Assembly: GCA_030167865.1 (NCBI GenBank)
Contig: JALAGF010001425.1
Coordinates: 1 to 35,083 of the forward strand
Length of the DNA stretch: 35,083 bases
Reading direction: 5' to 3'
Source of the DNA: Craspedostauros australis
Lineage: Eukaryota
Below the pieces are notes generated by a model. It made no database searches. It was not told the origin of the DNA and worked only from the letters and a program-made list of their open reading frames with translations. A program made the position numbers and the translations under genes. Below are positions 23,805 to 31,900 of the stretch, one piece after another (the stretch's first letter is position 1; every line of letters starts with the position of its first letter).

Positions 23805-26345
23805 ATGTCCAGCAATGACACAAAATCAACCCAAGGACGTTCCCATCAACTCGTCCACACCAGCGGCGACGACGACCAACCTGCGGCATTGGATCAGCCA
23901 TCATCAGCATCAGCACCATCAGCACCATCATCAGTATTGTCATCGTCGGCACCAACAAACCCTTCCAACGCATTGAATACGGGAGAAACGACGATGGAAC
24001 CACCCTCGAATCTCACGGACTCCAGCGTCGCCGATCGACGACGGCGGAATTCTTCGTCGCGCACCTGTCAACACGCTTCTGAGCACGACTCACAGACGCC
24101 CCTCAGTAATGACCAATCGCGAATGCCAACTTCGGGCTGCCTGCCTTCGAAGTGGTCAGCTTCGTTGTTTCCAACCAAACCAAATCTGTTGCAAGCCGCC
24201 GACAACGATCTCAGTGGAAACGACGAATCTTGGAATGGCGACGACTATGACTTGGACGGCCACTTTGGCGACTATGGCGACGACAACGACGATGATGGAT
24301 GGGACTTGTCAGCTCCATCAGCGCAACAGACAAAGTCCAACCTGAATGCACCTCCCTCGTCCGTGCCGAACTTGTTCTGCATGAAGCACGGCGAGAACCA
24401 CTGCACACAATCCAAGCGGGGCAATCGCAGCAATTGCGGCGCCACCAAAAGCATCAATGGTCAGAACCGCTCGCTGTTCTCATCATGTGCTGCAAACTCG
24501 GGGAAAATATGGCATAGGTATCGAACATCACCCTCCTCCACATCGGCATCCGCTACGGCAGCTTCAGCTTCATCAATCGCCACGTTGTCCGCGGATTCTG
24601 TGTCCAGCAACACTTCGCGGACAGGCTGCGTCGCAGCGGCACCGTCGAAGACAGTCTCATGGGCCAACCTCCTCGAGAATGAGCTGGTCTACACCGATGA
24701 CGAACTTCACATGCCTGATGGAGACCAACCGACGGAGGCAAGCGCGTTGGATCCACCACACCTCAACGCTCCGCGCAACTACTACATCGTCACCACAGCG
24801 GCCCTGCCGTGGATGACAGGCACGGCCGTCAATCCATTGCTCAGGGCCGCTTACCTCAGCCGATCCACTCGCTCGCATTTCTCGGATGACGACGGCCGCA
24901 ACAATGAACCCACCGTCACGCTGGTCCTGCCTTGGTTGGAATCGCCGCAAGATCGTGTGCAGCTGTACGGTGAGGAATGGCGAGATGCCACGCCCGCCCA
25001 TCAGGAGGCCTACATCCGCCGTTGGTTGTCCGACTCCGCGCAAATGCCGCTGGAAGCGGATCCGTCCAGAGGTGGCATCGAGATCGAATGGTACGAGGCC
25101 AAGTACCATTCCGCGCTGTCCAGCATCTTTGCCATGGGCGATCTCTGCCAGCGTGTCCCCGCCGAGGACGCGAACAAGAAGCGCAACACAATTTGCATCC
25201 TCGAGGAGCCCGAGCACGTCAACTTTTACCGCTCCCCCGGACGCCTTTCATGGCGCGACAAGTTTCATCACGTCATTGGAATCGTCCACACCAACTACAA
25301 GGCATACGCGCGCAACCACTGCTCTGGTCTTGTCATGGGGCCCTTCATCGGGGCCGTTTCCACGGACATGGTACGTGCCTACTGCGACAAGGTCATCAAG
25401 CTCTCTCCCGTCCTGCAACGCTACGCGCCGGAGAAAGAAATCGTGTGCAACGTGCATGGCATTCGAAACGAGTTCTTCCAAAAGGAACGGCCCACCGGGA
25501 ACAAGATATACTTCGTGGGCAACCTGCTGTGGGCCAAGGGACTTGACAAAATGCTCGGCTTGCAGATGTTCTACAAGCGCAAAACGGGAGCCTACTTCCC
25601 CATCGACGTCTTTGGCGGCGGTCCTGACGAGGAGGAAATCAGGAAGGCGTTCTTGAACCCTCATCTCAAGTGCGATGGCGGTGGGTATTCCGGGTCTCCG
25701 AAGGACTCGCAGCATGCCGCACGTGCAATGGACACAGGGAAGAACGATGGTTCTCCCACCGTCATGGCCACATCATCTTTGAGACTGTGGTTCTCGGCGG
25801 CATCCTCGCCACTGCGCCAGCATCCGCCGATTCCGGCCACGTTCTGCGGACGCAAGGACCATGCTGCCGTTGGTTCCGACTACAAGATCTTTGTCAACCC
25901 CTCCATCACGGAAGTCCTCTGCACCACCACAGCCGAGAGCATCGCCATGGGCAAATGGGTCATTATCCCCAAGCACGCGTCCAACGAATTCTTCCTCCAA
26001 TTCCCGAACTGCCTGCAGTACTCCACGAAACAGGAATTCGTCGAGGCCTTGCACCACGCACTGCAGCATCCAACACCGCTCCAACAGGATGAGCTCCTGC
26101 GACCCCTCACGTGGGAAGCCGCGACGCAACGATTCTTGGAGGTCGGCTGCATTGCCAAGCGCGATGCGAGACGCCGCGGTCGCATCGGATTCAGGCTTGA
26201 CGAGACCATGCATTACACGCTGGGACACGGGCGGCGCGGGGACGTGATTCGCAAGGTGCTGGGTGGCGGACCGGTCGCCAATCAGCACAAGTACGAGACG
26301 TCGGATGTACCGAGCGACGTCATCGTGGTGCCAAGTCAGTGTTGA
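23805..26345 (+). CDS. DGD: Digalactosyldiacylglycerol synthase (GT4) with a long S-rich N-terminal extension
   Basis: DGD motifs IVTTAALPWMTGTAVNPLLRAAYL, ILEEPEH, VIGIVHTNY, YCDKVIKLS, CNVHG and YKIFVNPSITEVLCTTTAE..AMGKWV..PKHASNEFF.QFPNC. The start is taken as GCC-ATG at 23805; the frame is open from 23457, with an alternative ATG at 23511. Confidence 0.92.
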   Translation: MSSNDTKSTQGRSHQLVHTSGDDDQPAALDQPSSASAPSAPSSVLSSSAPTNPSNALNTGETTMEPPSNLTDSSVADRRRRNSSSRTCQHASEHDSQTPLSNDQSRMPTSGCLPSKWSASLFPTKPNLLQAADNDLSGNDESWNGDDYDLDGHFGDYGDDNDDDGWDLSAPSAQQTKSNLNAPPSSVPNLFCMKHGENHCTQSKRGNRSNCGATKSINGQNRSLFSSCAANSGKIWHRYRTSPSSTSASATAASASSIATLSADSVSSNTSRTGCVAAAPSKTVSWANLLENELVYTDDELHMPDGDQPTEASALDPPHLNAPRNYYIVTTAALPWMTGTAVNPLLRAAYLSRSTRSHFSDDDGRNNEPTVTLVLPWLESPQDRVQLYGEEWRDATPAHQEAYIRRWLSDSAQMPLEADPSRGGIEIEWYEAKYHSALSSIFAMGDLCQRVPAEDANKKRNTICILEEPEHVNFYRSPGRLSWRDKFHHVIGIVHTNYKAYARNHCSGLVMGPFIGAVSTDMVRAYCDKVIKLSPVLQRYAPEKEIVCNVHGIRNEFFQKERPTGNKIYFVGNLLWAKGLDKMLGLQMFYKRKTGAYFPIDVFGGGPDEEEIRKAFLNPHLKCDGGGYSGSPKDSQHAARAMDTGKNDGSPTVMATSSLRLWFSAASSPLRQHPPIPATFCGRKDHAAVGSDYKIFVNPSITEVLCTTTAESIAMGKWVIIPKHASNEFFLQFPNCLQYSTKQEFVEALHHALQHPTPLQQDELLRPLTWEAATQRFLEVGCIAKRDARRRGRIGFRLDETMHYTLGHGRRGDVIRKVLGGGPVANQHKYETSDVPSDVIVVPSQC

Positions 26346-26564
26346 AGATAGAACATGGATGGTACCGTCCGAGCACAGTGCGCTCGTATGGCACCAAAAC
26401 TGGAACCGTACAGCATACACTTCATCATTTCATTGCATAACAGCGAATTTAGAATAGAACCAAACCTCATTTAAAGTGCTCTAGTGTTATGGCATCTGTA
26501 TGTCCGTCCTCCACACCCACAAGTACTGGTCGTCATGAACGCCTCGTCCATTACCTCTGCCCGT

Positions 26565-28349
26565 TCATTTTGGCAGTACCATCTCCGCATGCGCATGGAT
26601 GCCATCGGGCAAGGACACCGTGGGGATCTTCGTCAGCAGATGCAGAAATGCGGGCGTATCCTTGGTCAAATCCGTCGGTGTCCAGGAATTGAGATCGCCC
26701 GGCAGCTGATGCTTGCGTAGATCCTTCCACGCACATTCCCTCCACGTCACATCGCGGTACAGCTTATGCTGCGCGAAGGCCACCAGCGTCCGACATTCCC
26801 GCACGCGCACGAGCACATGGTCGATGCGACAAAACAGCTTGCTGAGCACGTAGATGCAGGTCGGCATGACGCGCATCTTGACCGTCATCTGGACCTCGCC
26901 ATTGTCGTGCAGATCGTCCTCGTACAGCACGATGTCATCGAACAGAAGGATGGGCACCGATTGATCGGTCAGGAGGTGGACGGGCATGCCGGATTGTGGC
27001 AGGGATGTCCACTGCGCGCCAAAGAGCTTGCCACAAAAGGGCGTGCTGAAGGACCAGTCGTAATGGAAGATGGCGGATGTTTTGGAAATGGCGGTCGTCG
27101 TCGCTCGTTGCGTCGCCAGCGGTTGCGTTTTGTTCTGCCACAGCTTGGCGTCCGAGACCTTGAGGACGGAAACGCCGCGGAAGGAGGCGGGGCTGGACTT
27201 CTCACCGTCCTCATCGTTTGGAATGGGAATGGCCTGATGAGCCTCACCCCATTCCTTGAGGGCGTCCATGGCATCCCACGAAATGAAGAAGTCGCCCTTC
27301 GTGCGTTCTAACGCCACGTGGGCTGCTGGGAAGACCATCTCAGGCAATCCGATGCGTCGCGTGATTGGGCTCTCAGCGCTTTGTGCGACGGATTGCAGAG
27401 GCTGGTGCTGAGACAAGGCCTCCAGGTCATTCGTGGCCTGCTCGAACCATCCCTCGCGTCCGATGGGACCCTGCGAAGTGCCGATGTCCCAACCGTGGAT
27501 GGAGATCCCGACCAGCTGATGATCCCACAACAGCGGCTTGGCATGGAACTGCTCTAACCGCTCGGAGATGTGACGCCGCTTGGACGCGATGTTGGTCTGT
27601 CGCCACGATGACATGGGTCGTTGGTACTCTGGCTTAGCCGCGGCTTGATTCTGGGACTTGGGCATCTTCAGATCGGCTTGGTCCGCAAGAATCACGTTCT
27701 CCAACTTCGCCACAGCAGCAGCCATTTCCTGATTCTGCCTGTTGTCCTCGTTGGCATTGCTGTTGCTGTTACTATTGCTGTTCATACTATTGCTGTTCAT
27801 ACTATTGGTATTGTCATTGGTATTGTCATTGCGACCGCTGCCTTTGTTCATCGACTTTCCCATCTTGGCTGGCCCCTGGCCTTCGATGTAACATTCGTGA
27901 ATGTGCAGCAACGTGGTTGTGGCCGCGGCGGACGCTATCGAGCCTGCTTGTCGATCGTGCTGAATCCACGCCGTGACCTTCCTCGCCGTGATCTCCTCTC
28001 CGCTCACGTCGTTGATGCAGCGGCATTGCCAAACCTCCACGACGGCCAGGATGAGGCTCCGGTGATCGGTCACGTCGTGCTGCTGCAGGATCTGCAAATT
28101 CCTCAATTCCACGTCGAACGTGGACCATGACGCTCCACACCCGTACGTCCAATGACCCACCAACCACGCATCCCCCCTCCACAGCTTGCCGCGGCCATCC
28201 AGCAAAGTGAACGTGCGCGGTGCCACCTGCTCGTTCCATTGCTTCTTGAGCGCGTGGAATTCGTGCAGACCGCGGATCCAACGCACGCCGACTTCGTAGA
28301 ATGCGCCGAGGCATTCCGTCGCCGCGAGCTTGGGGTCCTGTCGTGTCAT
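26565..28349 (-). CDS. TIP41: TIP41/TIPRL (PP2A-family phosphatase regulator, TOR pathway) with an extra N-terminal NTF2/SnoaL-like domain, 594 aa
   Basis: TIP41 motifs LPEMVF, YDWSFSTPF and PILLFDDIVLYEDDLHDNG...VKMRVMP...FCRIDHVLVRVRECR. The N-terminal ~155 aa are globular and separated by an Asn/Ser linker. Confidence 0.88.
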   Translation of the reverse strand: MTRQDPKLAATECLGAFYEVGVRWIRGLHEFHALKKQWNEQVAPRTFTLLDGRGKLWRGDAWLVGHWTYGCGASWSTFDVELRNLQILQQHDVTDHRSLILAVVEVWQCRCINDVSGEEITARKVTAWIQHDRQAGSIASAAATTTLLHIHECYIEGQGPAKMGKSMNKGSGRNDNTNDNTNSMNSNSMNSNSNSNSNANEDNRQNQEMAAAVAKLENVILADQADLKMPKSQNQAAAKPEYQRPMSSWRQTNIASKRRHISERLEQFHAKPLLWDHQLVGISIHGWDIGTSQGPIGREGWFEQATNDLEALSQHQPLQSVAQSAESPITRRIGLPEMVFPAAHVALERTKGDFFISWDAMDALKEWGEAHQAIPIPNDEDGEKSSPASFRGVSVLKVSDAKLWQNKTQPLATQRATTTAISKTSAIFHYDWSFSTPFCGKLFGAQWTSLPQSGMPVHLLTDQSVPILLFDDIVLYEDDLHDNGEVQMTVKMRVMPTCIYVLSKLFCRIDHVLVRVRECRTLVAFAQHKLYRDVTWRECAWKDLRKHQLPGDLNSWTPTDLTKDTPAFLHLLTKIPTVSLPDGIHAHAEMVLPK

Positions 28350-28452
28350 CCTTCGAGGCGAGGGCTACTCGCAGTTTGTATTATACTCAAGTCTATGTGT
28401 ATTTTAGGGACGGTGGTGGCAGTGCAATCGATGATTGACCCAATGTCTATGG

Positions 28453-28523
28453 GCACAATGATGATATTACCTGCACAATGATGATGATGATGATATGCAC
28501 AATGATGATATGCACAATGATGA
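28453..28523. repeat. Four copies of GCACAATGATGA in the divergent TIP41/PPR intergenic region
   Basis: gcacaatgatgatattacct gcacaatgatgatgatgatgatat gcacaatgatgatat gcacaatgatga. Confidence 0.8.
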
Positions 28524-28973
28524 GGATGCGTTCACGTTTGTGCGGGTGGGGTGAAGTCACACATGGTTGTGGGTGGTGGTGGCGGGAGATGCGTTTGGTG
28601 TCACATGAAAACCAAGTTGTCGATTTGCCGGGTTTCCTACTCAAGACTCACTACTCACGACTAAAATTATTTTCTATTTTTCTCGTTGGGAACAAATAGG
28701 AAAGAGCTAGGGTTATCACATCAATGAGTTGCGATTGCTGACCATTGATCTCTCTGTGTCCTCTTTCGAGCTGGTGCTGACGTTCTTTCCCAATGCCCAC
28801 CCATCGACATCCCACCATCCGTACTCGTCAAAAGCCTCCGCATCACACCAGCATAAGCACCATACGACTACTCGTGACATACAATACCAAACGATAGAAT
28901 ACTCGTACTGGCACAATCCAGCCCAACCTTGATCTCTGCGATCTGCACGCAAGAAGCAGGCGGACTCGTTGCA

Positions 28974-31900
28974 ATGAGACAGTTCATTCTCGATGTGCCT
29001 TCCACCGTCGGACTGCTCATTCTGTGCCTCGCATTCCGACCAGATGACCGGTTACGTCCATCATCAGCACTTCCGTCGCTGCTGACGTCGTCAGCATTCA
29101 CACCTATTATCACACAGGGGCAACGCCGTTGCCATCAGCCACAGCATGGGTCGCAGAGTTGCAGGCACTGGATGAGCACGAATCAGCGCGGCCCCATTGG
29201 TGCGACATTCCGACTCAATAGCAGCATTGACAACAGCAGCAGCAGCAACAGCAGCACTGACTACGACCGCCCGACAGTCAGGACGAAGAAACAAACTGGT
29301 CCGCGAGGAGCAAAGAAGGGTGGCAAAGCCATAAATGCACCAGAGCAACGCAATCCCAGCAAATCACGTCGCAAGCCGCCCGTACGCAATCGAGTGAAGA
29401 AGAAATGGGAGCTACGTCCGCTGGATGAGGAACTCAAGAGGTTAAGACATCGTCAGAACGGAGTCGGACAGGCAGAGAGGGTGCTGGAGGAGAGCCTGCA
29501 ATCCATGATGCTTGATTACAACATGTCTTCTACTGTCGATATCAGCACCGATAGCAACGCCACCACCGATGACGGCAGCACCACCAGCACCACCAGCACC
29601 AATGCACCGGCCATCTATCTCAGCAGAACCAAAATCTATCAGTCCAACTATCCCGATCGCACCAACTTTCACACACTGCTTGCGATTTATTCACAGAACT
29701 CCAGATTCGACCCATCCGCGGCGAAGAAGGCGCAGACGACGTTAGATCAAATGAAGAGCATGTCCAAGCTGTTCTCGCATTTGAAGCCTCAGATATATAC
29801 CTACAATGCCGTGCTCGAGGTCTTCACCAAGAGCTACACATCCGACAGGCTCAAGCTCAAAGGCCGGCGTCACTACTACAAGCGCTGCATCCAGGCCTTG
29901 TTCGAAGAAATCAAGACGACATCCAAACCAAACACCTTCACGTACAATATGATACTGTCCTTGCGAACACCAGAACTGGAGGAATGGAGGGAAGCCGAGG
30001 CGTGGTGTTTGGCTGGTGTTCAAGACGACCCAGGCACGACAACGGCCAATACCCGCTATCTCCCGGATTCTCAATCGCTCAATTCACTGCTGCGCACCTA
30101 CGCCAAAGTGGGCCAAGGAGATGCGGCGCAATCCCTGCTGGTGCATCTCATCAACGAAAGTCAAACACAACGCCTGGATGAATCCGATGAGGATTGCGCG
30201 ATCCGGCAAAAGACCATGATGCCTCACATCGTGCGCTTCAATTATGTCTACTCTGCGCTCACGTCGTACGCCTTCATCCAGCAAACGTCACCGCGCGAAG
30301 CCTGCAAGCGAACGCTGCAGCTGTTCGCATTGCAGAAGAGACTCGTTGCCGATGGTTTGGAAAATGCGCAGCCGGATACGGTAACGTACAATCAAGTGAT
30401 CTCTGCACTTGCGCGCGATGGGCAGACCAAGAAGGCACTGCAGGTCCTGGAGGAGCATGAGACCATGGCCTCGCAGGATCCAACCAACAAACGATTGAAA
30501 CCGGATCTCATCACCTATTCCTCCACATTGCAGGCATTCGCGAAGGAGCAAGGTCAATTCCATCATCGTGGTCTTCGGAGGCAGGCGAAGTCACAGCAAC
30601 AGGCCGAACTTGCGATGGAAGTGTTCCGTCGGTTGGTCGAGGCGTACCGAACTTCTGGGGACCCCGAGATGGCCCCGACGGTTCGGATATGTGAGTACAT
30701 ACCATCGCCATTGCTGTTATCGTCATCGTCATCGTCGTGATCAGTTGCACCAGCTGCGTCAGTTGAAGACGCAGAAAGACGGAATGAGATGAATGCCATA
30801 CAATCCACTGGAATCACTCTCACAGTCACACCTTTGGTTTCACGCTTTGCGGATGCTCTTGAACTCTTCCACTCCCTACCATGCGCATGTACTTCAGACA
30901 ACATCCTGATCAACATTTGGTCAGCCATCGGTTCAAGAGATGGACTGGACAAGGCATACTCCATCCTGAGGGATATGAAGGCGTTGTTCGGGGTGAACCC
31001 GGATCAGATCTCCTATGCCACGTTGATCTTCGCATGGTCCAGGAGCAGCCGAACCAACCGACTACCGGATGCAGGATACCGCTCGGGCAACTTGTTGAAC
31101 GAGTTGAACCAGCTCCCACACAGCCGCCTCTCTAACATGAAGTGGACGTCGATCATCAACGCTGTCATATCCGCCTGGGCGCGCAGCGAACACGAGCAGG
31201 CGCCGCAACAGGCGGAAGAGCTGCTGTCCATGCTGGAAGACAAGCTGGCGACTGGACATCCCAACGCCAATCCTGAATGCGCCACCTTCATCGCCATCAT
31301 CGATGCCTACGCCAAGGCAGGAATCCCCGACGCTCTCGCCCGGTGCGATGAACTCCTGGAACGGATGGAGGACCTCGCGACGACGTACGACATTGATGGA
31401 TTGGAGCCGACTCGGTCGCTTTGGAATGCTGTCGTCAATGCGTTGGCCAAGAGTATGCAACCGGAAGCGGTGGATCGAGCAGAGGAAATCCTCGCCATGA
31501 TGCAGGCCTCCACTGATGACGATGTGAAACCAGACATCGTCACCTACGCCACGCTCATCGATTGTCACACCAAGTGCGGCGGCGATCCGAATCGCGCGGA
31601 GGAGTTGCTGACATTCGTCGAAGAGACGTACCGCAATGGCAGCACGCATCTGTGCCCCAACGGCGTGTTTTACAGCGCGATACTACAGTCGTATGCCAAG
31701 CAAGCCACCACGGAAGGCGTGACAAAGGCGGAGAATCTGCTGAAACGGAACAGCGAGCTTTACGAACAAGGCAAGTGGTACGCCAAACCAAACACCGTGA
31801 TGTACAACGCCGTCATTGATGCGATCGCGCGTGGGGCTGGCGATGATGCCGGTGACAAGGCGGAAGCGCTACTCGGTCAGATGGAGACGATGTATGCATC

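Follow-up and report, generated by a model that had tools for sequence, protein, structure and literature searches.

A fused TIP41 gene in Craspedostauros australis

The window analyzed here is a 35,083-nt contig stretch (JALAGF010001425.1) of the diatom Craspedostauros australis, and the gene of interest is a single stop-free open reading frame (ORF) of 594 residues on its minus strand (26565..28349) that joins a globular N-terminal domain, hereafter called the head, through a linker to TIP41. TIP41/TIPRL proteins control how PP2A-type phosphatases are inhibited and recycled downstream of TOR, and in yeast, animals, and plants TIP41 is a single-domain protein; the TIPRL constructs that have been solved comprise 240 to 251 residues. 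An earlier note on this DNA, made from the letters alone, had described an uninterrupted ORF with a ∼155-residue globular N-terminal domain, an N/S linker, and TIP41, and this arrangement was confirmed here. The interval to which that note was attached, 27885-28349, represents codons 1 to 155 of the ORF, and all six of the motifs it quoted were located in the protein (numbered as the window protein, here and below, unless stated): AFYEVGVRWIRG at residues 16-27, FTLLDGRG at 47-54, FDVELRNLQI at 78-87, AVVEVWQ at 102-108, RKVTAWI at 123-129, and LLHIHECY at 147-154. An in-frame TAG is found six codons upstream of M1, and the ORF therefore has no 5' extension without an intron.

The GC fractions at codon positions 1, 2, and 3 were 0.60, 0.46, and 0.78 for the head and 0.59, 0.42, and 0.76 for the TIP41 part, compared with 0.42, 0.49, and 0.49 in the upstream intergenic DNA. 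Because the values for the two domains match, the head is coding in the frame of the ORF with a codon bias like that of the rest of the gene. The linker includes tandem repeats identified by TRF with periods of 6, 12, and 15, all in frame; two of the arrays have 100% matches and the repeat units are multiples of 3 throughout. The AlphaFold2 (AF2) model of the full-length protein (predicted local distance difference test score, pLDDT, of 78.9) contains two confident domains, residues 1-156 and ∼248-594, which are joined by segments with pLDDT <50 (165-200 and 223-243) flanking a helix at 204-222.

The TIP41 part

The C-terminal part of the protein matched PF04176 with an E-value of 3.2e-40 (137.9 bits versus a cut-off of 25) over residues 338-544, corresponding to profile positions 1-173 of 174. 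Human TIPRL (5d9g/5w0w) was recovered at 8e-16 with the single sequence and at 4e-30 with a profile. In human TIPRL, the residues I136, T138, F180, M196, D198, and R200 are implicated in binding the C-terminal tail of the PP2A catalytic subunit, PP2Ac (PMC4973239). On the basis of a manual count along the alignment, these residues correspond to L459, T461, Y500, V516, E518, and R520 of the window protein, so that the cleft for the PP2Ac tail is represented by two identical residues and four conservative replacements. R520 was invariant among 40 diatom homologues. The TIP41 part thus looks, from its sequence, competent for PP2A-type catalytic subunits. Like human TIPRL and yeast Tip41 (5D9G, 5W0W; PMC4973239 and PMC5741625), the window protein possesses a full TIP41 domain, within its C-terminal ∼350 residues, with the cleft residues kept or conservatively replaced; unlike those proteins, it adds an NTF2-like head and a disordered linker of ∼90 residues, and it carries V where the human protein has M196.

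Fold of the N-terminal head

The head was modeled with AF2 using an alignment, giving a pLDDT of 91 and a predicted template modeling (pTM) score of 0.86. The model contains helices at residues 6-26, 31-41, and 61-66, followed by strands at 77-94, 97-111, 118-132, and 144-154, and has the features expected of an NTF2-like protein: an alpha+beta cone in which three N-terminal helices pack on a long curved antiparallel sheet. A Foldseek comparison with the PDB returned 73 matches at E<=1e-3, and all those listed were NTF2-like or designed proteins, including the hubs of CaMKII, 1tp6, LinA, a cortisol binder designed on an NTF2-like fold, and functionally uncharacterized NTF2-like proteins. With the structural aligner (VIA), the best match was PA1314 of Pseudomonas aeruginosa (1tp6; Z 16.7, root-mean-square deviation 1.8 Å, 125 of 126 residues), followed by the CaMKII hubs (Z ∼14) and, lower, by NTF2 itself (Z 12.7); the 50 listed chains ranged from Z 12.6 to 16.7 and nearly all were solved NTF2-like or cystatin-like entries, one being a designed protein. 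The earlier note had named failure of residues 1-160 to fold as an NTF2-like domain as an outcome that would refute its proposal; the confident model and the identity of its Foldseek and VIA matches went the other way. As modeled, the head is an NTF2-like cone. A prediction of two copies of the head as a homodimer scored 0.00, but the alignment was unused in that calculation and the fold of the chain itself was uncertain there, so the result was counted neither way.

Sequence family of the head

The sequence relationships of the head are more distant than its fold matches. A phmmer search of 1.84 billion representatives gave five matches, four of which (best 1.6e-17) are TIP41 proteins or a fragment that align through their N-termini, and the head is thus no chance sequence. 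The fifth, P0123 (7.9e-14), a 2438-residue bacterial repeat protein of the DUF7507/DUF11 kind, was rejected as a spurious, repeat-summed match; its score was summed over 12 matched stretches of ∼60 residues, and a later hidden Markov model (HMM) search found 16 repeat units in it. A word-indexed search with residues 1-165 against the class of 326-1040 residues found nothing, a result that reflects the sensitivity limit of the method and not absence. The best hits of an ESM Atlas feature search (0.90, to unnamed and retrotransposon-gag clusters) were judged to be noise.

The family became apparent through relatives of the TIP41 part. In an alignment of the window head with 70 homologues (A1), each of the 71 members was scanned against Pfam: 24 matched S6PP_C (E<=0.01), five matched DUF4440, and one each matched SnoaL_2 and SnoaL_3. 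When 12 orthologues were scanned singly, two passed the S6PP_C (PF08472) gathering score of 34.4 bits (P0097 with 35.3 bits and P0114 with 39.0 bits), the window head fails this threshold, and 22 of the best 120 TIP41 homologues have a precomputed PF08472 tag N-terminal of TIP41. The window head has no match to DUF4440 (PF14534) or the SnoaL-like families (PF12680, PF13474), and the A1 matches to these were below the cut-offs where those were shown. The likeness to DUF4440-type NTF2 proteins and to the C-terminal domain of sucrose phosphatase that had been proposed earlier thus holds at the level of the family (the 24 S6PP_C and five DUF4440 members of A1), with no Pfam match for the window's own head.

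A profile built from 19 heads matched 1tp6 over its whole length at 5.9e-10, the sole significant sequence match in the PDB. The same profile found 1397 proteins of 75-289 residues at E<=1e-3; 115 of the 120 that were listed are tagged PF08472, and the listed proteins include entries from metagenome-assembled genomes (MAGs) of Chromatiales, Alpha- and Gammaproteobacteria, and Rhodospirillaceae, together with a protein of the diatom Odontella aurita and an MMETSP transcript. Stand-alone S6PP_C-like proteins of ∼145 residues (P0130-P0243) form a large family in marine proteobacterial MAGs and algae, with 1tp6 as a solved member. A literature search combining 1TP6 and NTF2 returned a SCOP paper only. 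Like PA1314, its closest solved structure, the head has the region of the terminal W-x-H-x-x-E-T motif; unlike the window clade, whose signature (described below) is degenerate, PA1314 has an intact signature, is not fused to another domain, and is functionally uncharacterized. We conclude that the relation of the head to the S6PP_C family, as judged from the sequences, is real but distant, the latter because only two of the 12 orthologues pass the gathering score; the head is a diverged relative of that family, and the whole protein belongs both to the TIP41 family and to the NTF2-like superfamily.

Distribution of the fusion among diatoms

Homologues of the TIP41 part were examined as the best 120 of 154 matches, which are diatom-type TIP41 proteins and include named sequences from Seminavis robusta, Mayamaea pseudoterrestris, Nitzschia, Cylindrotheca, and Attheya. 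A survey of relatives for the same fusion had been proposed in the earlier note, and an HMM iterated from the window head detected the head in 76 of these 120, S. robusta and M. pseudoterrestris among them. With the window protein included, 73 of 77 head-bearing TIP41 proteins matched the head profile with E <=1e-28; the four weaker matches were P0008 and P0034, both N-terminally cut, together with P0055 and P0094. Among 80 metagenome TIP41 loci, seven encode head and TIP41 within one ORF uninterrupted by stops (the longest contig being 28.6 kb), and in all seven the head remains in frame across hypervariable linkers. A separate upstream ORF for the head was found at none of the 80 loci within the available upstream DNA.

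These data bear on the possibility that the fusion is an artefact of assembly or of gene modeling that joined neighboring genes. That explanation can appeal to the general risk of such errors and to the fact that the exact window protein was not found in the collections searched. We regard it as extremely unlikely, given that the raw DNA has no stop between the domains, that the same architecture occurs in the 76 homologues from independent sources (JGI, ENA, Logan, and NCBI), and that seven independent metagenome contigs carry the fusion.

In a tree of the TIP41 domain, head-bearing proteins are located in almost all of the major branches; a few clades are headless throughout, namely a five-row clade with Cylindrotheca and a four-row clade with Attheya. 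Several headless rows are truncated models because their TIP41 part is identical to that of head-bearing proteins (P0071 and P0072 versus P0078). A FastTree phylogeny of 196 head and stand-alone sequences places the fused heads in four groups of 18, 9, 5, and 50 rows that match clades of the TIP41 tree, so head and TIP41 have travelled together. The fused groups are interleaved with a 31-row group (containing Odontella and the MMETSP transcript) and a 75-row group (with four bacterial MAG names). Such a phylogeny had been suggested earlier as a test for a bacterial origin of the domain; it resolved the four fused groups, but its backbone support of 6-77 is too low for that test, and these sequences are compatible with a single fusion or with multiple ones, and with a source in either a stand-alone diatom paralogue or a bacterium. 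Since diatoms have stand-alone members of their own, direct transfer from bacteria need not be invoked. Taken together, the head has been inherited along with TIP41 across a large set of diatom sequences, and we regard the fusion itself as very likely.

The fused proteins are already present in public databases, where their names include 'TIP41-like protein' and 'type 2A phosphatase activator TIP41'. The earlier statement that the fusion was undescribed agrees with the literature searched (full text, with subscription papers and supplements outside its scope), which yielded no description; any impression that it is confined to this genome is corrected by its wide occurrence among database sequences.

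With an HMM of its own, a further domain was detected N-terminal of TIP41, behind the position of the head, in 26 of the best 120 homologues; the head is present as well in 20 of these 26. This middle domain is glutaredoxin/SH3BGR-like (Pfam SH3BGR matched 3 of 71 members and Glutaredoxin 3 of 71), occurs within P0013-P0104, and is exemplified by residues 202-295 of P0060. The window protein is without this middle domain and has the N/S repeat linker in its place.

Signature residues of the head

Conserved residues were counted, in the numbering of the window, among 114 stand-alone proteins, 64 other fused heads, and 18 heads of the clade that includes the window protein. All 114 stand-alone proteins have H18, W24, P52, Y104, Q108, R123, W147, H151, E152, T153, and W154, and 111-113 have E13, G54, E105, E106, W107, and H149 (111-112 for E105, E106, and H149). 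The 64 other fused heads have them as well, with very few exceptions. Within the window clade, H18 is replaced by Y (18 of 18), E106 by V, L, or I (18 of 18), and W147 by L, I, or V (18 of 18), and both Y104 and P52 are gone; W24 is kept in 18 of 18. The window protein itself has C13, Y18, G52, V104, V106, L147, C153, and Y154, departing from the stand-alone signature, while it retains E105, W107, Q108, R123, H149, H151, and E152. The geometry of the strands places positions 104, 106, and 108 on one face and 147, 149, 151, and 153 likewise on one face. The head has also evolved faster than TIP41, with identities to the nearest relatives of 31-41% versus 58-61%.

For the stand-alone family, the invariant polar residues suggest a putative active or ligand site, and the same pattern raises the alternative that the head of the window protein senses a small molecule, or has an enzyme-like pocket, and so passes a metabolite signal to TIP41 and PP2A in the TOR branch; this is the bolder of the two functions, pocket or dimerization, that the earlier note had suggested. 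Binding and catalytic sites typically show a polar signature of this sort, which is intact in the stand-alone proteins and in the 64 other fused heads; enzymes and ligand binders are found among the fold matches (LinA, scytalone-dehydratase-like proteins, the designed cortisol binder, and a ligand-bound CaMKII hub); and E152 and T153 persist in the window clade. Against this alternative, H18, Y104, E106, W147, and P52 have been replaced in that clade, mostly by hydrophobic residues, the window protein has C153 and Y154 instead of T and W, and a ligand is known for no member of the family, 1tp6 included. The hydrophobic replacements argue, at the level of sequence, against a ligand pocket of the ancestral type in the window clade and in favor of a pairing or docking role. 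We consider the sensor unlikely here but keep it alive because the signature partly persists, and such a role would better suit the canonical heads found in other diatoms.

Transcript cover and the start codon

Four contigs from one run, whose kind was guessed to be RNA, map only to 26014-27060 and are uninformative on the start site; the run contains 0.27 of the window's words, and its contigs give no cover of the 5' half of the TIP41 gene. These contigs span the 3' third of the gene and ∼550 bases past the stop codon with zero differences from the window, and the cover past the stop could represent a long 3' untranslated region, the next gene, or DNA.

This pattern leaves room for translation that begins mainly or additionally at an ATG further downstream (M163, position 27863, or M209, position 27725), which would yield an ordinary stand-alone TIP41, with the head rare or restricted to an isoform. 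In addition to the missing RNA cover, TIP41-only proteins that begin just before the SxRRH motif occur in other diatoms (e.g., the Cylindrotheca transcriptome protein P0025), and 73 of the 80 metagenome loci are TIP41-only. The comparative data make a downstream start improbable: the head is conserved as protein (the E-values of <=1e-28 in 73 of 77 proteins), its codon-position GC equals that of the TIP41 part, and the frame is kept across the hypervariable linkers in seven of seven loci, with linker repeats that are multiples of 3. A 489-residue fused protein (1470 nt of coding sequence; the P0091 cluster) recurs in several samples on contigs of 1614, 1662, and 1703 nt. Because this is the size expected for full-length mRNAs, these may be metatranscriptome contigs that show the fusion on a single transcript.

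Features of the locus

The coordinates of the gene and its parts are collected in Table 1. The divergent neighbor, an ORF of 603 residues at 28929-30740 on the plus strand, encodes a PPR-repeat protein (PPR_2, 8e-15) and is separated from the fused gene by an intergenic region of ∼580 bp.

Table 1. Parts of the fused TIP41 gene and its upstream region, in window coordinates
Feature	Position	Strand	Basis
Whole coding sequence, 594 codons + stop	26565..28349	-	Stop-free ORF, preceded by an in-frame stop 6 codons before M1
NTF2-like head of the S6PP_C/PA1314 kind, residues ∼6-156 (predicted)	27882..28334	-	AF2, structure match to 1tp6, orthologue profile; no Pfam match alone
Flexible N/S-rich low-complexity linker, residues ∼157-247	27609..27881	-	AF2 pLDDT <50 at 165-200 and 223-243
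In-frame tandem repeats encoding the N/S run	27757..27831	-	TRF periods 6, 12, 15
Isolated predicted linker helix, residues 204-222	27684..27740	-	DSSP on the full-length model, block pLDDT 63-71
TIP41 domain, residues ∼248-594	26568..27608	-	PF04176; AF2 confident from ∼248
TIP41 Pfam core, residues 338-544	26718..27338	-	PF04176
Intergenic region, presumed promoter, common with the divergent neighbor	28350..28928	.	No codon-position GC bias

Discussion

We propose that this single diatom gene encodes a TIP41/TIPRL-type regulator of the catalytic subunits of PP2A-family phosphatases in which a disordered linker of ∼90 residues tethers an NTF2-like head of the S6PP_C/PA1314 family to TIP41. 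The TIP41 part would bind PP2A/PP4/PP6-type catalytic subunits as TIPRL does, and the head would serve mainly as a module for self-association or partner docking, after the example of plant S6PPc. In this way the head may make TIP41 bivalent or put TIP41 on a partner, rather than sense metabolites in the ancestral manner. For the gene structure and this mechanism taken jointly, we judge the chances of being right to be about even.

The docking or self-association role is favored because of the precedent of S6PPc, the loss of the signature in the window clade, and the resemblance to the CaMKII hub of a cone on a flexible tether. Plant S6PPc is the sole experimentally characterized relative of the head. 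When it was added to the monomeric sucrose phosphatase of a cyanobacterium a dimer was formed, its removal from Arabidopsis SPP2 gave a monomer, and by gel filtration and bimolecular fluorescence complementation it is a transferable dimerization module (PMC5113954, Albi et al. 2016). Like plant S6PPc (PF08472), the head is a non-catalytic appendage of ∼150-160 residues on a signaling or metabolic protein, and the orthologous heads belong to the same Pfam-level family; unlike S6PPc, which is C-terminal to a HAD phosphatase, the diatom head is N-terminal to TIP41, and the window head is too diverged for the Pfam model and has partly lost the family signature. The association (hub) domain of CaMKII is likewise an NTF2-like cone on a flexible linker to a signaling domain, where it drives oligomerization; the CaMKII hub differs in being C-terminal and forming 12-16-mers, and the likeness is a fold match only, at 6-15% identity and with no sequence match in the PDB, to a diatom protein known from its sequence and a model.

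Several observations weigh against this proposal. The head alone matches nothing in Pfam, even at E<=10, and because the window head fails its Pfam threshold and only two of 12 orthologues pass, any extrapolation of dimerization from the plant domain to this head bridges a wide evolutionary gap. The window clade retains E152 (18 of 18) and T153 (17 of 18, with C in the window protein), and more loosely E105, Q108, R123, H149, and H151, so a modified pocket is conceivable; the signature residues, assigned to faces by strand geometry, may or may not line the cavity. TIP41 without the head is encoded at 73 of the 80 metagenome loci and by 44 of the best 120 homologues, and TIP41 therefore works without the head in other lineages. 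The V found in the window protein at the position of human M196 is the residue of a TIPRL mutant, M196V, reported to be binding-deficient (PMC4973239). Finally, M1 is inferred as the start from comparative sequence data only.

A broader extension of the sensing alternative is that diatom TIP41 acts as a gated regulator in which the head reads a small molecule and the glutaredoxin/SH3BGR-like domain (in 26 of 120 relatives) reads redox state, switching the binding and release of PP2A-family subunits. We view this as speculative and decidedly unlikely. If true, a gated TIP41 would let metabolites or redox state act directly on the TOR-PP2A branch, an arrangement without parallel in yeast, animals, or plants.

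Diatoms rank among the major primary producers of the sea, and their nutrient and TOR signaling is poorly mapped. The stand-alone S6PP_C-like family of ∼145 residues in bacteria and algae is uncharacterized, and its polar invariants hint at an unrecognized activity. The head-linker-TIP41 protein offers a natural comparison between heads with an intact signature and those in which it is degenerate. If a pairing or sensing module is indeed carried by TIP41 throughout the lineage and inherited vertically, diatoms would wire the PP2A/TOR node differently.

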